NCBI GenBank assembly: GCA_038883855.1
Contig: JAVZLH010000001.1
Coordinates: 128,001 to 192,000, forward strand
From: Candidatus Bathyarchaeia archaeon
Lineage (GTDB): Archaea > Thermoproteota > Bathyarchaeia > Bathyarchaeales > Bathycorpusculaceae
Length of the DNA: 64,000 nt
Direction of reading: 5' to 3'
Shown: positions 30,671 to 54,938 of the stretch, piece after piece
How the letters are laid out: every line of letters begins with the position of its first letter
How positions within the stretch are numbered: position 1 is the first letter of the stretch
The notes under the pieces: generated by a model
Database searches by the model: none
The model's input: the letters and a program-made list of their open reading frames with translations, nothing else
What the model was told of the DNA's origin: nothing
Program-made: the position numbers and the translations under genes

Positions 30671-30748
30671 TTACTTGTATCTTGCCCTTCTCTTTTGCCT
30701 CTTCTTTTTCTGCCGTCGCATCCTTTTCTTTTTCCATTTAGCGCGAAT
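30671..30748 (-). CDS. rpl41e: Ribosomal protein eL41 (eS32), eukaryote-like, 25 aa; probable ATT start (in-frame GTG alternative at 30757)
   Basis: (I/M)RAKWKKKRMRRQKKKRQKRRARYK* versus human [31 protein letters not shown] SD 8 nt before the ATT. Confidence 0.88.
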   Translation of the reverse strand: MRAKWKKKRMRRQKKKRQKRRARYK

Positions 30749-47580: not shown

Positions 47581-50500
47581 ATGCCCTACATTAAAAAAAT
47601 TGAGATTAAAGGCTTCAAATCCTTCGGTCCGCAAACCGTTAAAGTAGTCTTGGATAAGGGCTTCACAGCTATTACTGGACCAAACGGAAGCGGGAAAACA
47701 AACATTGTCGACGCTGTTTTGTTCGCTCTTGGCGAGTTAAGCACGAGAAGGCTTCGTGCTGAAAACGCTGCTAAACTCATTTTTCACGGTTCTGAGAAGG
47801 CTGGTTTAGAGAAGGCGAAGATGGCTAAGGTCGTAATTCAGTTTGACAACTCGGATGGCAGGATGCCTGTTGACACAAACACAGTAACAGTCTCGCGAGA
47901 GGTTTACAGAAACGGTCAAAGCATTTATAGGCTTAATGGTAGACGAATTTCTAGAGCATATATTTTGGAAATTCTGTCTATGGCAGGTATAAGCAGCACA
48001 AGCCAAAACATTATCCCGCAAGGCACGATAACCCGCCTGACCGACATAACCCCTCCAGAACGTAGGAAAATAATTGAAGACTTAATTGGAATAGCCCAGT
48101 ATGACGCTGAAAAAGCTGAGGCTGAAGAAAAGCTTCGGATGGCAGACATATCCATCCGCACGGCTATGGGCAGAATAGACGAGGTTCAGAAGAGACTAGA
48201 TGATTTAGAGAGGGAGCGCAATGAGCTCTTGAGGTTCAATTTTATACACAATGAAATAAAAAAGTTTGAATCTGTCAAAATTTCGCATGAAATGGCGCAG
48301 ATACAGAAAAAGTTGGAGGAAAACTCCTCACAAGCAGACAAAATTAAAATCAGAGTTGAAAAATTAAGGCAATTGCGTGAGGGATATCGGTCAAAGAGAA
48401 GGGAGATCGAAGGAGAATGGCGGAAGCTAAGCTCCGAAATAGTTGAAGAGGGTGGCTCCCAAGTTTTAAAGGTTCAAATTAGAATCGGCGAGCTGAAATC
48501 AAAACTTACAGAGTTGACAACGAAAATAAGTTCTGGTAAAGCAAGCCTCGAGAGCTTAAAACGTGTTAGAGAAAACAACTTACAACAATACCAGTCTATA
48601 AGAAAAGAAATTAGCGAAAACCACCTAAAAATAAGAAAACTGAAAAAAGAGTTTGAGAGTATTCTAAACCAGATAAACCAAAAACAGTCCGAGCATGATG
48701 CTCTTGCACGAGAAACAGCTTTACTCTGGGAAAATATTGGAGAAAACAGCAAGAAAATCCGTGAGATGGAACTTCAACTTGAAAACAACTATAGACGGCT
48801 CACAATATTAAGGTCTGAACAGGCAAAAAGCCAAACAGCCATTAAACTTCGTGAAAGAAGACTTAAAGACTTAACTGATAGGAAAGAAAGATTCGCTTCA
48901 ACGCTTTTAGAGCTGGAAAAGTCCTTTGCAGAACTGGAAAAAGTGCAGAAGGAGCAGAAAGCCCAGCTTAAAAATCTTGAGAGGCTCATCGATAGGAGAA
49001 TAGCCCAGAAAGAAGCCATCGAAAAAGAAATAGACCAAGCAGGTAAAATAGCTGATTCCGCTCGAGAAGCAGTCATCGAATTTGAAACACAAAGAGAACT
49101 CGCGGAAACCGTGGCTTCAGAAGAAAAAGCTCTTAAAAGCATAGAAGAACTAGGCGAGTTAGGTGTAATTCCAGGAGTTTACGGAAGACTACGCAACCTA
49201 ATCAAAATGGATAAGGCTTATGAAAGGGCTATGGAAGTGGCTGCAGCCGGATGGCTCGACGCCATAGTGGTCAAAGATTTTGACGCTGCCTTCACATGTG
49301 TAGAGACTTTACGAAGGATGAAGCTTGGAAGAATAAAGATAATACCGCTTCAAGGAACACCCCCAACCAAACCAATAAAAATTCCATCCATAGAAGGCGT
49401 CAACGGAGCAGCTTCCGCCTTCGTCAAATGTGAGAAATCCTATGAGCCAGCTGTTCAATTCGTGTTCGGCGACACAGTAATAGTTTCAGACGACAAAACT
49501 GCCTTTACACTATCAAATGAAGGTTACCGTGCAGTTACAGTGAACGGAGACTTGTACGAGCCGGGCGGAGCCTTCGAAAGCGGCTATTACAGGGCTCCAA
49601 TAGATTTCTCCGCAATCATACCAAGCGAGGCAGCCATCAAAAGCCTTGACGAGGCCGTGAGAGCCCTCCAGCAGCACCTTGCCCAGAGAGATATGGACTT
49701 GGCAACTTTTGAGGAGGAAATAGACAGAACTCGCGTGGAAATTACCCGTCTCTCAGAAGCCATAACCACGTTGGACAGGGAAATAGCAAGGGTTAAGAGG
49801 AGTATTAAGAGGACCAAAGCCAACTTAAGGCGAGTAGACCATTTTATACAGCGTTATCAAAGTGAAATAGAAAATGAGAAAGCGCAGATGTGGCTTCGAA
49901 GAGCAGAAGGCAGTTCAATCCAAAAGGAGATACAAAAACTCCGAAGCGAACTTATCAGCTTAAGGCGAAAGACAGATCCAGGGCACATTCAAGAACTGGA
50001 GGCAAAAAGGGAGAAGCTTGCAGAAGAGATAATCACTTTGAGACAGAAACTTGGCGCTGTCCAAACAGAGATTTCGACGCTTCAATCCCAGTTTGACAAC
50101 GTTTTAAGAGTTGGATACAAGAATGCGAAGATTCAACTTTCAAAGGTTGAACAACAGCTAAAACAGGTGGAGAAGGAAGTTGAGGACGCGCTCAAAGAAA
50201 GAGAATCGCTGAAACAAGAAATTTCTGAACTGGAAAAAAGCCGCATCGAACTTTCAAAAACAGTCTTTTCCGCAAGAGAAGAAGCGAAGAAATTTACAAG
50301 CCAAATAGACGAAATAGACAAGGAACTCCGCAAACTTGACGCAGAATACGAGCAAGCCGACCGCCTGTTCAATCAACTTCAACTCAGCATACAGACGTCA
50401 CTTTTGCAACTTGAACAGTGCCGAAGTAGACTCAGGCAGCTTGGCTACGAACAACCCCTAGAAGTAACGCAGAAACAGGTTGAGGAGGCTGAAACCTCCA

Positions 50501-51135
50501 TTAAAATGATGCAGTTTGAACTCGAAAGAATTGGTGCAGTGAACCAGCTTGCCCTTTCCCATTATGCAGAGCAAATTTCACGGTATAAGGAACTTTCCAT
50601 GCGGCTAAACGAGCTTGAAAGAGAAAAACAAGCCATAGTTAACTTTATGGAGGAAATTGAACGCAAAAAACGCAAAGTATTCACAGAAGCCTTCGAAAAA
50701 ATCAACCAAAACCTTGGAAAATACTTTTCAAAACTTACAGGAGGTGGAAACGCGACAATGAAACTCGAAAACCCAGATGAACCCTTCCAAGGCGGAATTG
50801 AAATGATTGTCCAGTTTCCAAACAAGCCTTCTATAGTTGTAAGCGGAGCCAGTGGAGGAGAACGTTCGGTTGCTGCTGTAGCCTTCATATTCGCCATCAA
50901 GGACTTCAGCCCAGCATCCTTCTATATTCTGGACGAGATAGACGCTCATCTTGATGCTTTTCACGTTTCAAAACTCGCCGACTTACTGCTTGAAGAATCG
51001 GAGAAAAACCAGTTCATAGTAATAACCCTAAAGCCAGAGATGGTGAACAAGGCGCAGAAGGTTTATGGAGTTTATGAGCGGAACGGCGTCTCCAACATAA
51101 TTTCAGCAAAGTTCTTGGAGGTGCCTTCGAGCTGA
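47581..51135 (+). CDS. smc: Chromosome segregation protein SMC
   Basis: GFKSF, GPNGSGKTN, hinge GVYGRL, SGGERS, LDEIDAHLD; long coiled coils. Confidence 0.97.
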   Translation: MPYIKKIEIKGFKSFGPQTVKVVLDKGFTAITGPNGSGKTNIVDAVLFALGELSTRRLRAENAAKLIFHGSEKAGLEKAKMAKVVIQFDNSDGRMPVDTNTVTVSREVYRNGQSIYRLNGRRISRAYILEILSMAGISSTSQNIIPQGTITRLTDITPPERRKIIEDLIGIAQYDAEKAEAEEKLRMADISIRTAMGRIDEVQKRLDDLERERNELLRFNFIHNEIKKFESVKISHEMAQIQKKLEENSSQADKIKIRVEKLRQLREGYRSKRREIEGEWRKLSSEIVEEGGSQVLKVQIRIGELKSKLTELTTKISSGKASLESLKRVRENNLQQYQSIRKEISENHLKIRKLKKEFESILNQINQKQSEHDALARETALLWENIGENSKKIREMELQLENNYRRLTILRSEQAKSQTAIKLRERRLKDLTDRKERFASTLLELEKSFAELEKVQKEQKAQLKNLERLIDRRIAQKEAIEKEIDQAGKIADSAREAVIEFETQRELAETVASEEKALKSIEELGELGVIPGVYGRLRNLIKMDKAYERAMEVAAAGWLDAIVVKDFDAAFTCVETLRRMKLGRIKIIPLQGTPPTKPIKIPSIEGVNGAASAFVKCEKSYEPAVQFVFGDTVIVSDDKTAFTLSNEGYRAVTVNGDLYEPGGAFESGYYRAPIDFSAIIPSEAAIKSLDEAVRALQQHLAQRDMDLATFEEEIDRTRVEITRLSEAITTLDREIARVKRSIKRTKANLRRVDHFIQRYQSEIENEKAQMWLRRAEGSSIQKEIQKLRSELISLRRKTDPGHIQELEAKREKLAEEIITLRQKLGAVQTEISTLQSQFDNVLRVGYKNAKIQLSKVEQQLKQVEKEVEDALKERESLKQEISELEKSRIELSKTVFSAREEAKKFTSQIDEIDKELRKLDAEYEQADRLFNQLQLSIQTSLLQLEQCRSRLRQLGYEQPLEVTQKQVEEAETSIKMMQFELERIGAVNQLALSHYAEQISRYKELSMRLNELEREKQAIVNFMEEIERKKRKVFTEAFEKINQNLGKYFSKLTGGGNATMKLENPDEPFQGGIEMIVQFPNKPSIVVSGASGGERSVAAVAFIFAIKDFSPASFYILDEIDAHLDAFHVSKLADLLLEESEKNQFIVITLKPEMVNKAQKVYGVYERNGVSNIISAKFLEVPSS

Positions 51136-51839
51136 CAGCTTCCTCAACAATCACCAAAAAACCTTTTTACTTTCGTCCACCGTGGAACATTCTCTTTGAT
51201 TTTCACAGGCTTGAGAGGCTTACTCCATGGAACATTAACATAGCTTATCTGCTGGCATCCTTTCTAGAAGAGATGGAGCGCATTGGGCAAATTGATTTCA
51301 GAGCTTCTGGCATAGCTTTAGACTCCTCAGCCCTCATATACTTGATGAAGTCAAAGCTTCTGCTCAAACTTGAGGAACCTCCACCGCCACCGAAACCTCC
51401 TAAAGAATTTCTGCCGCCGCCTCTTTTTCTTCCGCTCCGACATGAATTGACATCAACAACTATAAGGCAACTACTGGAAGTCCTAGACGACGTTTTAAAG
51501 GGAGAAAAGCTGTTGCGTCTCGAAAAGGCTGTTTCAGAGCCCGTACTGCCTGCTCCCTCAGAGGTTCTTCCGCAATTCGAATTGTATTTGATGGAAATTG
51601 AGCTGCAGATGGAGAAGCTTTACAACTCTCTTGTGGAGAGAGTGAAGGGTGCTGGAATAATAGAGTTTTCATCGTTGATAAAGGGGATGGAGCGGCTGGA
51701 AGCCATCCGCACTTTCATTCTCCTATTATTTTTGGCGCAAGATTTGAAAGTGAATTTGTGGCAAGATGAAAAAACAGAAGAAATATACATAACAGTCGGG
51801 GATTTTAGCGTTGCAAGAAGTGGAAAAGCAGAAACCTAA
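51132..51839 (+). CDS. scpA: Kleisin ScpA (CTG start inferred)
   Basis: The frame extends 47 codons upstream of ATG 51273 through PPWNILF...LTPWNINIAYLL..FLEEM; CTG overlaps the smc TGA; GGAGGTG SD 8 nt upstream; C-terminal FILLLFLAQ..KV.LWQ. Confidence 0.88.
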   Translation: MTASSTITKKPFYFRPPWNILFDFHRLERLTPWNINIAYLLASFLEEMERIGQIDFRASGIALDSSALIYLMKSKLLLKLEEPPPPPKPPKEFLPPPLFLPLRHELTSTTIRQLLEVLDDVLKGEKLLRLEKAVSEPVLPAPSEVLPQFELYLMEIELQMEKLYNSLVERVKGAGIIEFSSLIKGMERLEAIRTFILLLFLAQDLKVNLWQDEKTEEIYITVGDFSVARSGKAET

Positions 51840-52386
51840 CCCTGACGAGAGGCTCCAGCACGATTTGATTCTGTTGGAAGCCGCCCTATACGTTGCAGGT
51901 CGTCCACTAAACATAAACGAATTATGCTCTATTTTAAAGACGCGCTCTAAAAACAAGGTTAAGAAGCTTGTAAAAACACTTATGCAAGAATACGCAAGCA
52001 GAAAAACGGCTCTCGAAATTTTAGAGTTGAAAGACGAGAGATATGTTTTGCAGTTAAAAGCCGAGTTTACACCTCATGTTCGAAAGCTTGTGAATAGACC
52101 GTTGCTTTCCATAGGTCCGCTTAAAACATTGTCTTACATAGCCTATAGGCAGCCGGTGTCCCAAAAGCGGGTTATTGAAGTGCGGGGTCACCACGCTTAT
52201 GGGCATATTAAACTATTAAAGGAGATGGGGCTTATTGCTAGCGAAAGAGGCGGACGTTCAACAATTCTTCGAACAACCGAATACTTCGCAGACTACTTCG
52301 GTTTAAGCCACGACATAGCCGCAATGAAAAAAGAGTTAAAAAATGTGTTCAAAGACTTTGCGAAGAAGGAAAACTTTCAATCCTAA
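51811..52386 (+). CDS. scpB: SMC-Scp complex subunit ScpB
   Basis: LEAALYVAGRPL, LKTLSYIAYRQPV, TT.YFADYFGL. Confidence 0.95.
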   Translation: MQEVEKQKPNPDERLQHDLILLEAALYVAGRPLNINELCSILKTRSKNKVKKLVKTLMQEYASRKTALEILELKDERYVLQLKAEFTPHVRKLVNRPLLSIGPLKTLSYIAYRQPVSQKRVIEVRGHHAYGHIKLLKEMGLIASERGGRSTILRTTEYFADYFGLSHDIAAMKKELKNVFKDFAKKENFQS

Positions 52387-52459
52387 AATGGAGATAGATT
52401 TATATGCCAAATAACTGTGATAGTGAACACTAACATAACATGTTGAAAGTGAAATAGAA

Positions 52460-52858
52460 ATGTCGGTTTGGCACGGAGACCTACATAAGAAAAAGCCTTC
52501 AGGAGGCAGAAGAAGACCCTACAGAGGAAAAAGAAAATTTGAAGAAGGCTCATTCCCGGTTGAAACAATATTGGGCGAGACAAAAAGGAAAGTGGAAAAA
52601 ACTAGAGGCGGAAACATAAAAATCAAAGTTTTAAGCGACAAATACGCATGTGTAACAGATCCAAAAAGCGGAGAAACAGTCAAAACCGAAATCCTAAGAG
52701 TTGTTAAAAACCCAGCCAACATTGACTATGACCGCAGAGGTGTAATAACCAAAGGCGCAGAAATAGAAACCCCCTTAGGGTTGGCTAGAGTTAGATCCCG
52801 CCCGGGACAAAACGGAGTCATAAACGCAGTTTTGATAAGCAAGGAAGAAAAAGCTTAG
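52460..52858 (+). CDS. rps8e: 30S ribosomal protein S8e
   Basis: K.SGG..R..R.KRKFE.G, RGGN.K, NPAN..Y.RRGVITKGA.I, SRPGQ.G.INAVL. Confidence 0.97.
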   Translation: MSVWHGDLHKKKPSGGRRRPYRGKRKFEEGSFPVETILGETKRKVEKTRGGNIKIKVLSDKYACVTDPKSGETVKTEILRVVKNPANIDYDRRGVITKGAEIETPLGLARVRSRPGQNGVINAVLISKEEKA

Positions 52859-52861
52859 GCT

Positions 52862-53164
52862 TCATTTATTTGACGGTTGCTGGCTTCGGATTTTTTGAAG
52901 AGTTTTCGCAATCTTTTTGATGGTTTTGTCTTTGGACTCGCTTTTCTCTACGAGAAGCATTCCAGTTTTCAGCCAAGGTGTCTTCGGGTAGCTGACATCC
53001 AAAACAACTTCATATTCCAAACCAAGCTTCTCAACAGCATCCCTGATCTCCGTGATCTTTGGAGATGGCACAGCCAAACTTTTTGGAATTCGCCGCCCCT
53101 CGCCTCTAGTTTTTGTCGAATCAAAGTAGGCTGGCCATATAATTATTTTCTCTTGTTTGCGCGT
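52862..53164 (-). CDS. srp19: Signal recognition particle protein SRP19 (ACG start inferred)
   Basis: (T/M)RKQEKIIIWPAYFDSTKTRGEGRRIPKSLAVPSP...YPK.PW..G; no in-frame ATG/GTG/TTG between the upstream stop and the WPAY motif. Confidence 0.9.
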   Translation of the reverse strand, partial: TRKQEKIIIWPAYFDSTKTRGEGRRIPKSLAVPSPKITEIRDAVEKLGLEYEVVLDVSYPKTPWLKTGMLLVEKSESKDKTIKKIAKTLQKIRSQQPSNK

Positions 53165-53183
53165 GTTCTCACAACCTCTTTAA

Positions 53184-54938
53184 TTATTTATGAGCGTAAT
53201 AAGCCGTTAATTTCTTGTTAACTCTATCAATTCTGACGAAGCCAAATCTCTCAAACTGTATTATGGTGTTTGGCTTTAGCCTGTTACAGGCGCTTTCAGC
53301 TATTCCTTCGGCTGTTGTGGCGTCTGGCATCATAACTTGGCATGGCATATCTTCCCCAACTGGTATCCAATGGATTAGCTTCGCCTTAGCTTTCTTCGCT
53401 TCCTCGTAGGCTTCACTAACAAATTGTGCTTCAGCGGAATATGAGCTTACATTTACTACTTTTACGTTAAAAAGCTCCATGAGACGCACTAACTCTTCGC
53501 CTTTCGCGTCGGCAGCATCTCTCCTCGTAATCCAGAGCTTAATAGAGCTGTCTTCTTTGGGCTTTATGGTGTATTCTCTGAAACCCCTCTCTGGATGTTC
53601 CGGATGCAAATTCAGCCTTACCTTAAAAGGCTTTGGAACACCCTTAACAGTCAACTCTATTGGATCTTGCACAAAAAAGTATCTGTTAACTGCTGGGTCG
53701 AGGATTTTGCGGTTGTAAGCGTACAGGTTCTCCCAACTTAAAACAACATCTGAAGTTTTGGGTCCAACTTCAATTATCAATTTTTTAATAGCTTCAGGAG
53801 TTATTCCCCGTCTTCTCAAGGCAGCAAAGGTTGCGAGGCGAGGATCATCCCAATCCTTGTAGAGGCCTTCTCTAATCCCTTGAACAATTTTTGACTTGCT
53901 TAAGGCTGCGCCTGTAATTTTTAATCTCCCGTAATGTATGGCTTCTGGATACTTCCAACCAAAATATTTGTACATATACTCTTGTCTAATCATGTTTGTG
54001 AGGTGCTCTTTTCCCCTTATTATGTGGGTTATGCCCATGAGGTGGTCGTCTATGCCGCAAGCGAAATTATATAGGGGCCATACATGGTATTTGCTTCCAA
54101 CTCGTGGATGCGGATATTTGTCGCTGTCTATTACTCTTAGGGCTGGCCAGTCTCTAACCGCTGGGTTCGGATGGTTCAAATCAGTTTTTACCCGAAGTAC
54201 CGCTTCACCTTCTTTATAGTCGCCTTTAAGCATGTGTTGCCATTTTGCAAGTTGTTCTTCTGGTGGCAAATTGCGGCATTCACAAGGTTGATTAGCTAGG
54301 ATTTTCTTTCTGAAGGCTTCTGGTCTGCATGTGCATACGTAGGCGTTTCCGTCTTTCAACAGTTTTTCCGCATGCTCATAATATATGTGGATTCTGTCGC
54401 TTTGAATGTATTCCTCATCTGGCTTGCATCCAAGCCACGCTAAGTCCTCTCTAATACGGTCGTAAAACTCTAAAACAGGTCTCTTCAATTTTGGGTCCGT
54501 GTCTTCGAAGCGTAGGATGAACTTGCCCTTATACATGCGTGCGTACTCGTGGCATAATATTATGGCTCTTGCTGAGCCCAGATGCAGAACGCAGTCTGGG
54601 TTGGGCGAGAAACGCGTTACAACTTTGTCATACTTTTCAACGTTTGGAAGAGGCGGAAGACGCTTTTCCTCTTCGGTTTTCTCCTCTTTTGTTAGTGTTT
54701 CAGGCCACTTTTCCTCGATGATTTTCCTCTGTTCGTTTAGCGTTAACTTGTTGACTTCCTCAACTATTTTATTGATGAGAACTGACAGTTCCTTAACCTT
54801 TGTTTTAAGCTCTGGTTTTTCCGCTAAAATTTTTCCGATAACCGGGCCTGCTTGGGCTTTGCCATCATGCTTAACAGCGTTTAGTAAAGCGTTTTTTCGA
54901 ATAATTTCTTTGAGTTCAACGTCTTCTTCGAGTGGCAA
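53184..54938 (-). CDS. gltX: Glutamyl-tRNA synthetase
   Basis: TRFSPNP...LHLGS, RFEDTDP, NPAVRDW, IIRGKEH, LSKS, QFERFGF. Confidence 0.97.
   Translation of the reverse strand: MPLEEDVELKEIIRKNALLNAVKHDGKAQAGPVIGKILAEKPELKTKVKELSVLINKIVEEVNKLTLNEQRKIIEEKWPETLTKEEKTEEEKRLPPLPNVEKYDKVVTRFSPNPDCVLHLGSARAIILCHEYARMYKGKFILRFEDTDPKLKRPVLEFYDRIREDLAWLGCKPDEEYIQSDRIHIYYEHAEKLLKDGNAYVCTCRPEAFRKKILANQPCECRNLPPEEQLAKWQHMLKGDYKEGEAVLRVKTDLNHPNPAVRDWPALRVIDSDKYPHPRVGSKYHVWPLYNFACGIDDHLMGITHIIRGKEHLTNMIRQEYMYKYFGWKYPEAIHYGRLKITGAALSKSKIVQGIREGLYKDWDDPRLATFAALRRRGITPEAIKKLIIEVGPKTSDVVLSWENLYAYNRKILDPAVNRYFFVQDPIELTVKGVPKPFKVRLNLHPEHPERGFREYTIKPKEDSSIKLWITRRDAADAKGEELVRLMELFNVKVVNVSSYSAEAQFVSEAYEEAKKAKAKLIHWIPVGEDMPCQVMMPDATTAEGIAESACNRLKPNTIIQFERFGFVRIDRVNKKLTAYYAHK

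Follow-up and report, generated by a model that had tools for sequence, protein, structure and literature searches.

In bacteria, infC starts with AUU, and in plant organelles the editing of start codons needs site-specific PPR/DYW factors; we know of no such editing factor in archaea. For archaea, a review gives the allowed starts as AUG, GUG and UUG and describes how aIF1 of S. solfataricus discriminates against AUU in vitro (PMC4705826). This discrimination counts against near-cognate initiation in the lineage described here. In H. volcanii, ribosome profiling assigned near-cognate codons to about 30% of the putative sites of alternative initiation, and the authors set these sites aside (PMC7261190). 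In yeast, every one-base variant of ATG is reported to initiate except AAG and AGG (PMC2909995). Our literature search found no report of archaeal genes that start with ACG; the matches listed for ACG starts all concerned eukaryotes, their viruses or plant organelles.

The SRP19 gene described here lies on the minus strand of the window, by which we mean the whole 64,000-nucleotide stretch of DNA that was analysed, from a hot-spring archaeon of the Bathyarchaeia. Read from an ACG at 53164-53162, its coding sequence occupies 52862-53164 and comprises 100 codons and a TAA stop (52864-52862). The frame, which runs from stop to stop over 52862-53179, is closed by an in-frame TAA (53182-53180) five codons before the ACG. 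After this TAA the codons read AGA GGT TGT GAG AAC ACG CGC AAA CAA GAG and continue AAA ATA ATT ATA TGG CCA GCC TAC TTT GAT. They include a Shine-Dalgarno (SD)-like AGAGGT (53179-53174), of which GAGGT (53178-53174) is a 5-nt match at a spacing of 10. In this genome the SD signal lies at -12 to -8, and SD spacings are about 7 to 10. A glutamyl-tRNA synthetase (GluRS)-like gene lies upstream on the same strand (53184-54938), and 19 nt separate its TAA stop (53186-53184) from the ACG. The original prediction had put an ACG at the expected Met position of SRP19, with a GAGGT upstream and a TAA five codons above, and all three proved correct to the base.

The first canonical start in this frame is a TTG at 53077-53075; upstream of it there is no ATG, GTG or TTG. 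A gene finder restricted to these three codons would shorten the product to 71 amino acids, as had been predicted for standard annotation, and the shortened protein would be without the IIWPAYFD..GRR part, which is the conserved N-terminal third. The full frame matches the Pfam SRP19 family (PF01922) over residues 13-96 of the stop-to-stop translation (E 2.3e-23), scores 83.2 bits against a cut-off of 25, and covers profile positions 1-94 of 95. It is open and 89% identical to its same-genus relatives. Compared with two ATG-bearing sister species, the synonymous/non-synonymous codon differences are 17/13 and 15/13, and between the sisters themselves they are 19/14. The coding frame shows no sign of decay.

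We searched for SRP19 in 41 genomes, namely this genome (G000) and 40 relatives, and found matches in 40. Thirty loci were cut out, so that 29 of the 39 relatives with a match were compared. In every one of these 29 relatives, the column that holds ACG in our genome is the start codon (27 ATG, 1 TTG and 1 GTG), and all 29 share the N-terminus M/L/V-RKQ[DE]K..IWP.YFD. Both other species of the genus start with ATG. Among 11 SRP19 loci from metagenomes, the motif was present in six, with five ATG and one TTG in the ACG column; the locus with TTG has a further ATG five codons downstream. ACG is therefore found in one species only, as the sole ACG among 35 SRP19 genes. The start codons of the relatives suggest that it arose by a T-to-C change of an ancestral ATG that is private to this species. 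It follows from its isolation that the site has not been tested by selection for long, which weighs against its use as a start.

Other core genes start with ACG throughout the class, and this is why we believe that the ACG of SRP19 is most likely a real, unrecognized start codon that gene finders miss. HflX (contig C2, 70935-72197, minus strand; compared with loci L241-L270 and L298-L377) starts with ACG in this genome. At the level of the order, the motif was present in 28 of 30 loci, with 27 ACG and 1 ACC in the start column. Across 80 species-representative genomes, almost all of them titled Bathyarchaeia or Bathyarchaeota and overlapping with the order-level set, we counted 73 ACG, 1 ATG and 2 ACA; two genomes have GAA and CAG in doubtful alignments. 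The outgroups (Nitrososphaerales and Caldarchaeum records, of Nitrososphaeria type) have TTG in both cases. GGAGG stands 9-10 nt before the HflX ACG, and in at least eight genomes an in-frame stop directly precedes it. At two loci (L366 and L368), CTG ACA replaces ACG, which is the same pattern as at the scpA start of our genome.

DnaG primase (contig C7, 21363-22562, plus strand; loci L211-L240) gave a similar result. The motif was present in 25 of the 30 loci cut out, and the start column contained 21 ACG, 4 ATG and no other Thr codon, with AGGAGGTG 7-9 nt upstream. In four of the 21 loci with ACG, an in-frame ATG precedes it by two codons and falls within the SD or next to it. As ACG accounts for only 18% of the Thr codons in this genome, its strict retention at DnaG points to selection on the codon itself. 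The relatives share ancestry; counts across them consequently overstate independence, and any formal test of this retention would be inflated. Each of the three genomes compared shows ACG at the start of RpoK, and the ATA start of FdhD is common to this genome and G001 of the same genus. A second private ACG was found in G000_02215, a thiolase-like/DUF35-like protein of 500 amino acids (contig C6, 39831-41384, minus strand), for which six of six relatives have ATG (L271-L275). By these comparisons, near-cognate starts are a property of the class Bathyarchaeia and not a quirk of this genome.

Two further genes of the window had been cited together with SRP19 as starting at near-cognate codons. 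One is scpA (51132-51839, plus strand). Its CTG start was borne out, with its place corrected to 51132-51134, where it overlaps the TGA stop of SMC (51133-51135) as CTGA. An SD, GGAGGTG (51117-51123), precedes it at a spacing of 10, and the first canonical start, the ATG at 51273, lies 47 codons after the CTG. All three species of the genus share CTG AC[A/G]. Of the 30 loci cut out, another 23 carry the motif, and these have 21 ATG, 1 GTG and 1 TTG one codon later. We take the comparison with these loci to indicate that the CTG start is real and as old as the genus. The start column of scpB was too variable among the relatives to be read; at L042 and L048, ACG occupies the column that holds the scpB ATG in five other relatives, within a region that is otherwise too variable.

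The other gene is eL41 (30671-30748, minus strand), which has 25 codons and a stop when read from an ATT at 30748-30746. The ATT does lie in the Met column, as had been claimed, but a GTG in frame three codons above it (30757-30755), inside an SD-like GGGGTG, offers an alternative start. Among 27 loci with the motif, the Met column contained 17 ATT, ATC or ATA (here called ATH), 8 ATG, 1 TTG and 1 shifted ATG. In 13 of the 17 ATH loci, ours included, a GTG or TTG is found in frame 1-5 codons upstream, inside an SD-like GGAG[C/T]GTG, and this codon may be the start there. The other four (L063, L072, L074 and L086) have no in-frame canonical start. At L063, which belongs to the same-genus genome G002, the upstream GTG of eL41 is separated from the ATC by a TAA, which leaves ATC as the only possible start. 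Judged by their distribution among relatives, the three cases differ in age: the SRP19 start is as old as the species, that of scpA as the genus and that of eL41 as the order.

How common are such starts? We compared G000 with 749 kb of same-genus G002 and 1.6 Mb of G010 from another genus, pairing genes as reciprocal best hits of stop-to-stop frames. In a plain count, the alignment extended past the first canonical start by at least 10 codons in 60 of 813 genes. This number is inflated by conserved leaders and shadow open reading frames, and it was therefore replaced by a filter based on synonymous change. The filter kept genes with protein-like conservation upstream of the first ATG, GTG or TTG, with a minimum of 8 identical residues, an identity of one half or more and a minimum of 4 synonymous differences. 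In G000, 21 of 772 genes passed it; the numbers for G010 and G002 were 8 of 772 and 10 of 564, respectively. Twelve of the 21 genes in G000 could be placed at a near-cognate codon, 11 by SD spacing and one, which encodes an AN1 zinc finger, because the codon falls in the ATG column of its partner. Six start with ACG (DnaG, HflX, RpoK, G000_02056, G000_02215 and SRP19), five with ATH (FdhD and the AN1 zinc finger with ATA, G000_00021 and G000_02089 with ATC, and G000_02503 with ATT) and one with CTG (scpA). No AAG or AGG start occurred among the 12, and AAG is a codon three times commoner than ACG in this genome. The remaining nine were MetRS, one gene frameshifted at a homopolymer, two that are truncated and five frames that are probably not genes or were left unclassified.

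An SD match of at least 5 nt was found in 8 of the 12 near-cognate genes, compared with 196 of 813 genes overall (binomial 0.002); the AN1 zinc finger had no SD match. Coupling to an upstream gene was not clearly enriched among the 12: an upstream stop lay within 30 nt in 6 of them, compared with 33.5% of 263 background genes (binomial 0.18), the distances being 19 nt for SRP19 and -4 nt for scpA. An automatic pick of SD plus near-cognate codon, whose search range was too narrow, found 6 near-cognate genes, and three decoy sets of codons gave 2, 1 and 0. It missed HflX, DnaG, scpA and others, which were placed by a wider SD scan and by eye. The SD-anchored codon table was noisy, with 4 ACG against 2 ACA, 1 ACC and 1 ACT. 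A search for the AN1 zinc finger in the relatives was rejected, as its matches were paralogues of about 290 amino acids and not orthologues. In the frame of MetRS (contig C20, 4391-6109, minus strand), an essential gene, the codons ahead of codon 35 include neither a canonical start nor any codon one base away from ATG; a GTA that it shares with G002 aligns with a GTG of G010 and lies only 4 nt after a GGAGG.

The census partly supports what the original prediction had to say about the genome as a whole. Frequent TTG starts are borne out genome-wide: the 135 canonical starts of G000 that are backed by an SD of at least 5 nt comprise 73 ATG, 44 TTG and 18 GTG, and TTG accounts for 33 of 108 such starts in G002. 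Near-cognate starts are indeed systematic in that they recur and stand behind an SD, but they are not specific to this genome, since HflX and DnaG have ACG across the lineage. A generally low codon stringency, which had been offered as the cause, does not fit. The set of codons is narrow (ACG, ATH and CTG, without AAG or AGG) and only 12 of 772 genes are affected; thus, stringency is not generally low.

An altered aIF1, which had been suggested, is not indicated either, and the initiator tRNA looks ordinary. In both G000 and G010 its anticodon is CAT, and the stem of the anticodon arm has the usual GGG:CCC. We found 23 tRNAs in G000 and 34 in G010, and none of the Met, Thr, Ile, Leu or unassigned tRNAs listed for G000 has the anticodon CGT. 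The alignment of aIF1 (contig C6, 45361-45690) with its M. jannaschii counterpart (4mo0, E 2.4e-34) runs from end to end and reveals no obvious oddity. The 3' end of the 16S rRNA was not found in the three genomes with the search pattern used, and the anti-SD was therefore taken from the upstream motif of 142 genes with a shared ATG.

Based on these observations, we propose a model for how SRP19 is made. We believe that the ancestral ATG became ACG by a recent T-to-C change confined to this species, and that SRP19 stays expressed because the lineage may be able to initiate at ACG, AUU/AUC/AUA and CUG when an SD places the codon in the P site. The 30S subunit would bind the AGAGGT 10 nt upstream, possibly on leaving the GluRS stop 19 nt before the ACG. 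Met-tRNAi (CAU), carried by aIF2, would pair with A1 and G3 and tolerate the C-A mismatch in the middle. The product would be Met-Arg-Lys-Gln-Glu-Lys..., probably made at a lower rate than from AUG. The codon, the orthology of its column with the start codons of relatives, the SD and its spacing, the contig-backed sequence, the intact frame and the deep ACG of HflX and DnaG are observed. That ribosomes start at this ACG, that Met is inserted there and that the yield is reduced we infer from these features, and we put the probability that SRP19 is translated from the ACG at about 0.6. A point against the model is that NCBI table 11 lists TTG, CTG, ATT, ATC, ATA, ATG and GTG as starts but not ACG; the CTG of scpA and the ATT of eL41 do appear in this list.

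A different possibility is that SRP19 has lost its start. The protein would then be made, if at all, from the near-cognate codons ATA ATT ATA (53146-53138, minus strand), which encode the first residues of the Pfam domain, or from the TTG at 53077, or the gene would be an early pseudogene, as yet free of further damage. The private nature of the ACG speaks for this possibility, and with the starts of table 11 the open reading frame from the ATA at 53146 would encode 94 amino acids and keep the entire Pfam domain. Additionally, SRP19 is dispensable in Haloferax, so that loss of expression might be tolerated, and the genome has other lesions, namely two homopolymer frameshifts and two truncated genes. 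However, the ATA at 53146 has no SD at a usable distance, the nearest GAGG being 28 nt off, and a start there would leave out RKQ[DE]K, which all 29 relatives retain. The gene shows no excess of non-synonymous change relative to the sister pair, and both the SD and its spacing to the ACG are preserved. Lastly, the lineage keeps ACG at the starts of HflX and DnaG. We therefore regard a lost start as unlikely.

C-to-U editing of the mRNA would let initiation itself remain canonical. As in plant organelles, ACG would be converted to AUG, and CUG to UUG. Among the odd starts ACG leads with 6 of 12, such a change would make both ACG and CTG canonical, and the strict retention of ACG at DnaG, to the exclusion of every other Thr codon, would also be expected. 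A cytidine-deaminase-fold gene (PF00383) was found once in each of the five relatives searched. The profiles PF00383 and PF14437 had no match in G000, whose bin is 85% complete, and its copy of the gene lies at the end of contig C10, cut by the contig end. On the other hand, C-to-U editing is not able to repair the ATT, ATC and ATA starts (5 of 12, plus eL41). The ACGs of SRP19 and G000_02215 are recent and stand in different contexts, which a site-specific factor would not cover in advance. By our reading of its motifs, the deaminase is probably a nucleoside cytidine deaminase; it is a single open reading frame of about 150 amino acids, a length at which no extra domain is visible. Our literature search found no archaeal mRNA editing. 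Thus, we consider editing very unlikely. A mixed arrangement, in which C-to-U editing acts on the ACG and CTG starts and the ATH starts are a separate phenomenon like that of infC, seems to us just as improbable.

Lastly, the C at 53163 might stem from a faulty assembly or consensus, or from a minor allele, with ATG as the true codon of the organism. We checked the site with Logan contigs. Two of them (X1 record 7, depth 13.6, and X4 record 31, depth 7.1) match 53060-53430 over 371 nt with no difference. X1 and X4 are two samples of one study, and one of them may be the source of the window. Contigs of a second study (X2 and X3) also span the ACG; each differs at three places, one of which may be 53163, and they speak neither for nor against the C. 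Over 50600-52100 of the window, X1 and X4 also contain contigs of a second, closely related organism, whose variants at 51127-51139 agree with the SMC-scpA junction as it stands in G002; the depth figures given above therefore mix two species. None of the runs listed for 50500-54000 is recorded as RNA; two labelled metatranscriptomic contain only 7% of its words and are probably DNA. The assembly is a metagenome bin of 24 contigs. On contig C1 near 196940 (plus strand), a succinyl-CoA-synthetase-like gene is cut from its start where seven A have become six relative to G002, and on contig C2 near 41360 (plus strand) the same has happened to a small membrane protein where five T have become six; these two changes may be either assembly indels or real frameshifts. 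Although an error at 53163 could be suspected in a bin with at least two such homopolymer indels, from samples that contain a close relative and of which one may not be independent, we find it highly improbable, because contigs built independently from two samples are identical around the site, the change is a substitution and not a homopolymer indel like those seen elsewhere in the genome, and the same T-to-C change at the start of G000_02215 and the ACG of HflX conserved in 73 assemblies are a pattern that is no error.

If ACG, together with ATH and CTG, works as a start in Bathyarchaeia, the archaeal set of AUG, GUG and UUG is incomplete, and gene finders that rely on ATG, GTG and TTG would cut short, over-extend or miss a small number of core genes in each genome of the class. 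Those affected here would include SRP19, ScpA, HflX, DnaG, RpoK, FdhD and eL41. Eukaryote-like machinery would then use the near-cognate set of eukaryotes under the guidance of an SD, and this would give a handle on proofreading by aIF1/aIF2 compared with eIF1/eIF2. The class-wide ACG of HflX would point to a selected translational throttle. SRP19 would offer a datable event, a change of ATG to ACG within one species in a gene that is otherwise intact. Were editing the true explanation, archaea would gain their first known case of mRNA editing, one that parallels plant organelles.

How do these starts compare with known systems? The non-AUG starts of eukaryotes and their viruses, such as the ACG of yeast ALA1 (PMC2909995) and that of AAV VP2, are alike in using a codon one base away from AUG. 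They are presumably also alike in that the codon is read by Met-tRNAi on machinery of the e/aIF2 type, with a lower output to be expected. The usable set reported for yeast leaves out AAG and AGG (PMC2909995), as does the set found here in Bathyarchaeia. In contrast, eukaryotic starts are found by scanning and context, whereas those described here are placed by an SD on a polycistronic archaeal mRNA. The rare starts of bacteria (infC with AUU, and the CTG, ATT, ATC and ATA of table 11) resemble ours in that a weak codon is led by an SD; some of the bacterial ones are conserved for regulation. The CTG of scpA and the ATH of eL41 fit the rare bacterial list, but ACG falls outside table 11. Additionally, the rare bacterial starts involve IF3 where the archaea considered here have aIF1/aIF2. 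Editing of ACG to AUG in plant chloroplasts and mitochondria shares with SRP19 a genomic ACG where homologues have ATG, but such editing is not able to account for the ATH starts. The near-cognate sites of H. volcanii are unverified extras as reported (PMC7261190), whereas in Bathyarchaeia such a codon appears to be the sole start of conserved genes. Finally, unlike in the eukaryotic cases, core genes of Bathyarchaeia would have no start other than ACG, and the codon is retained throughout the class.
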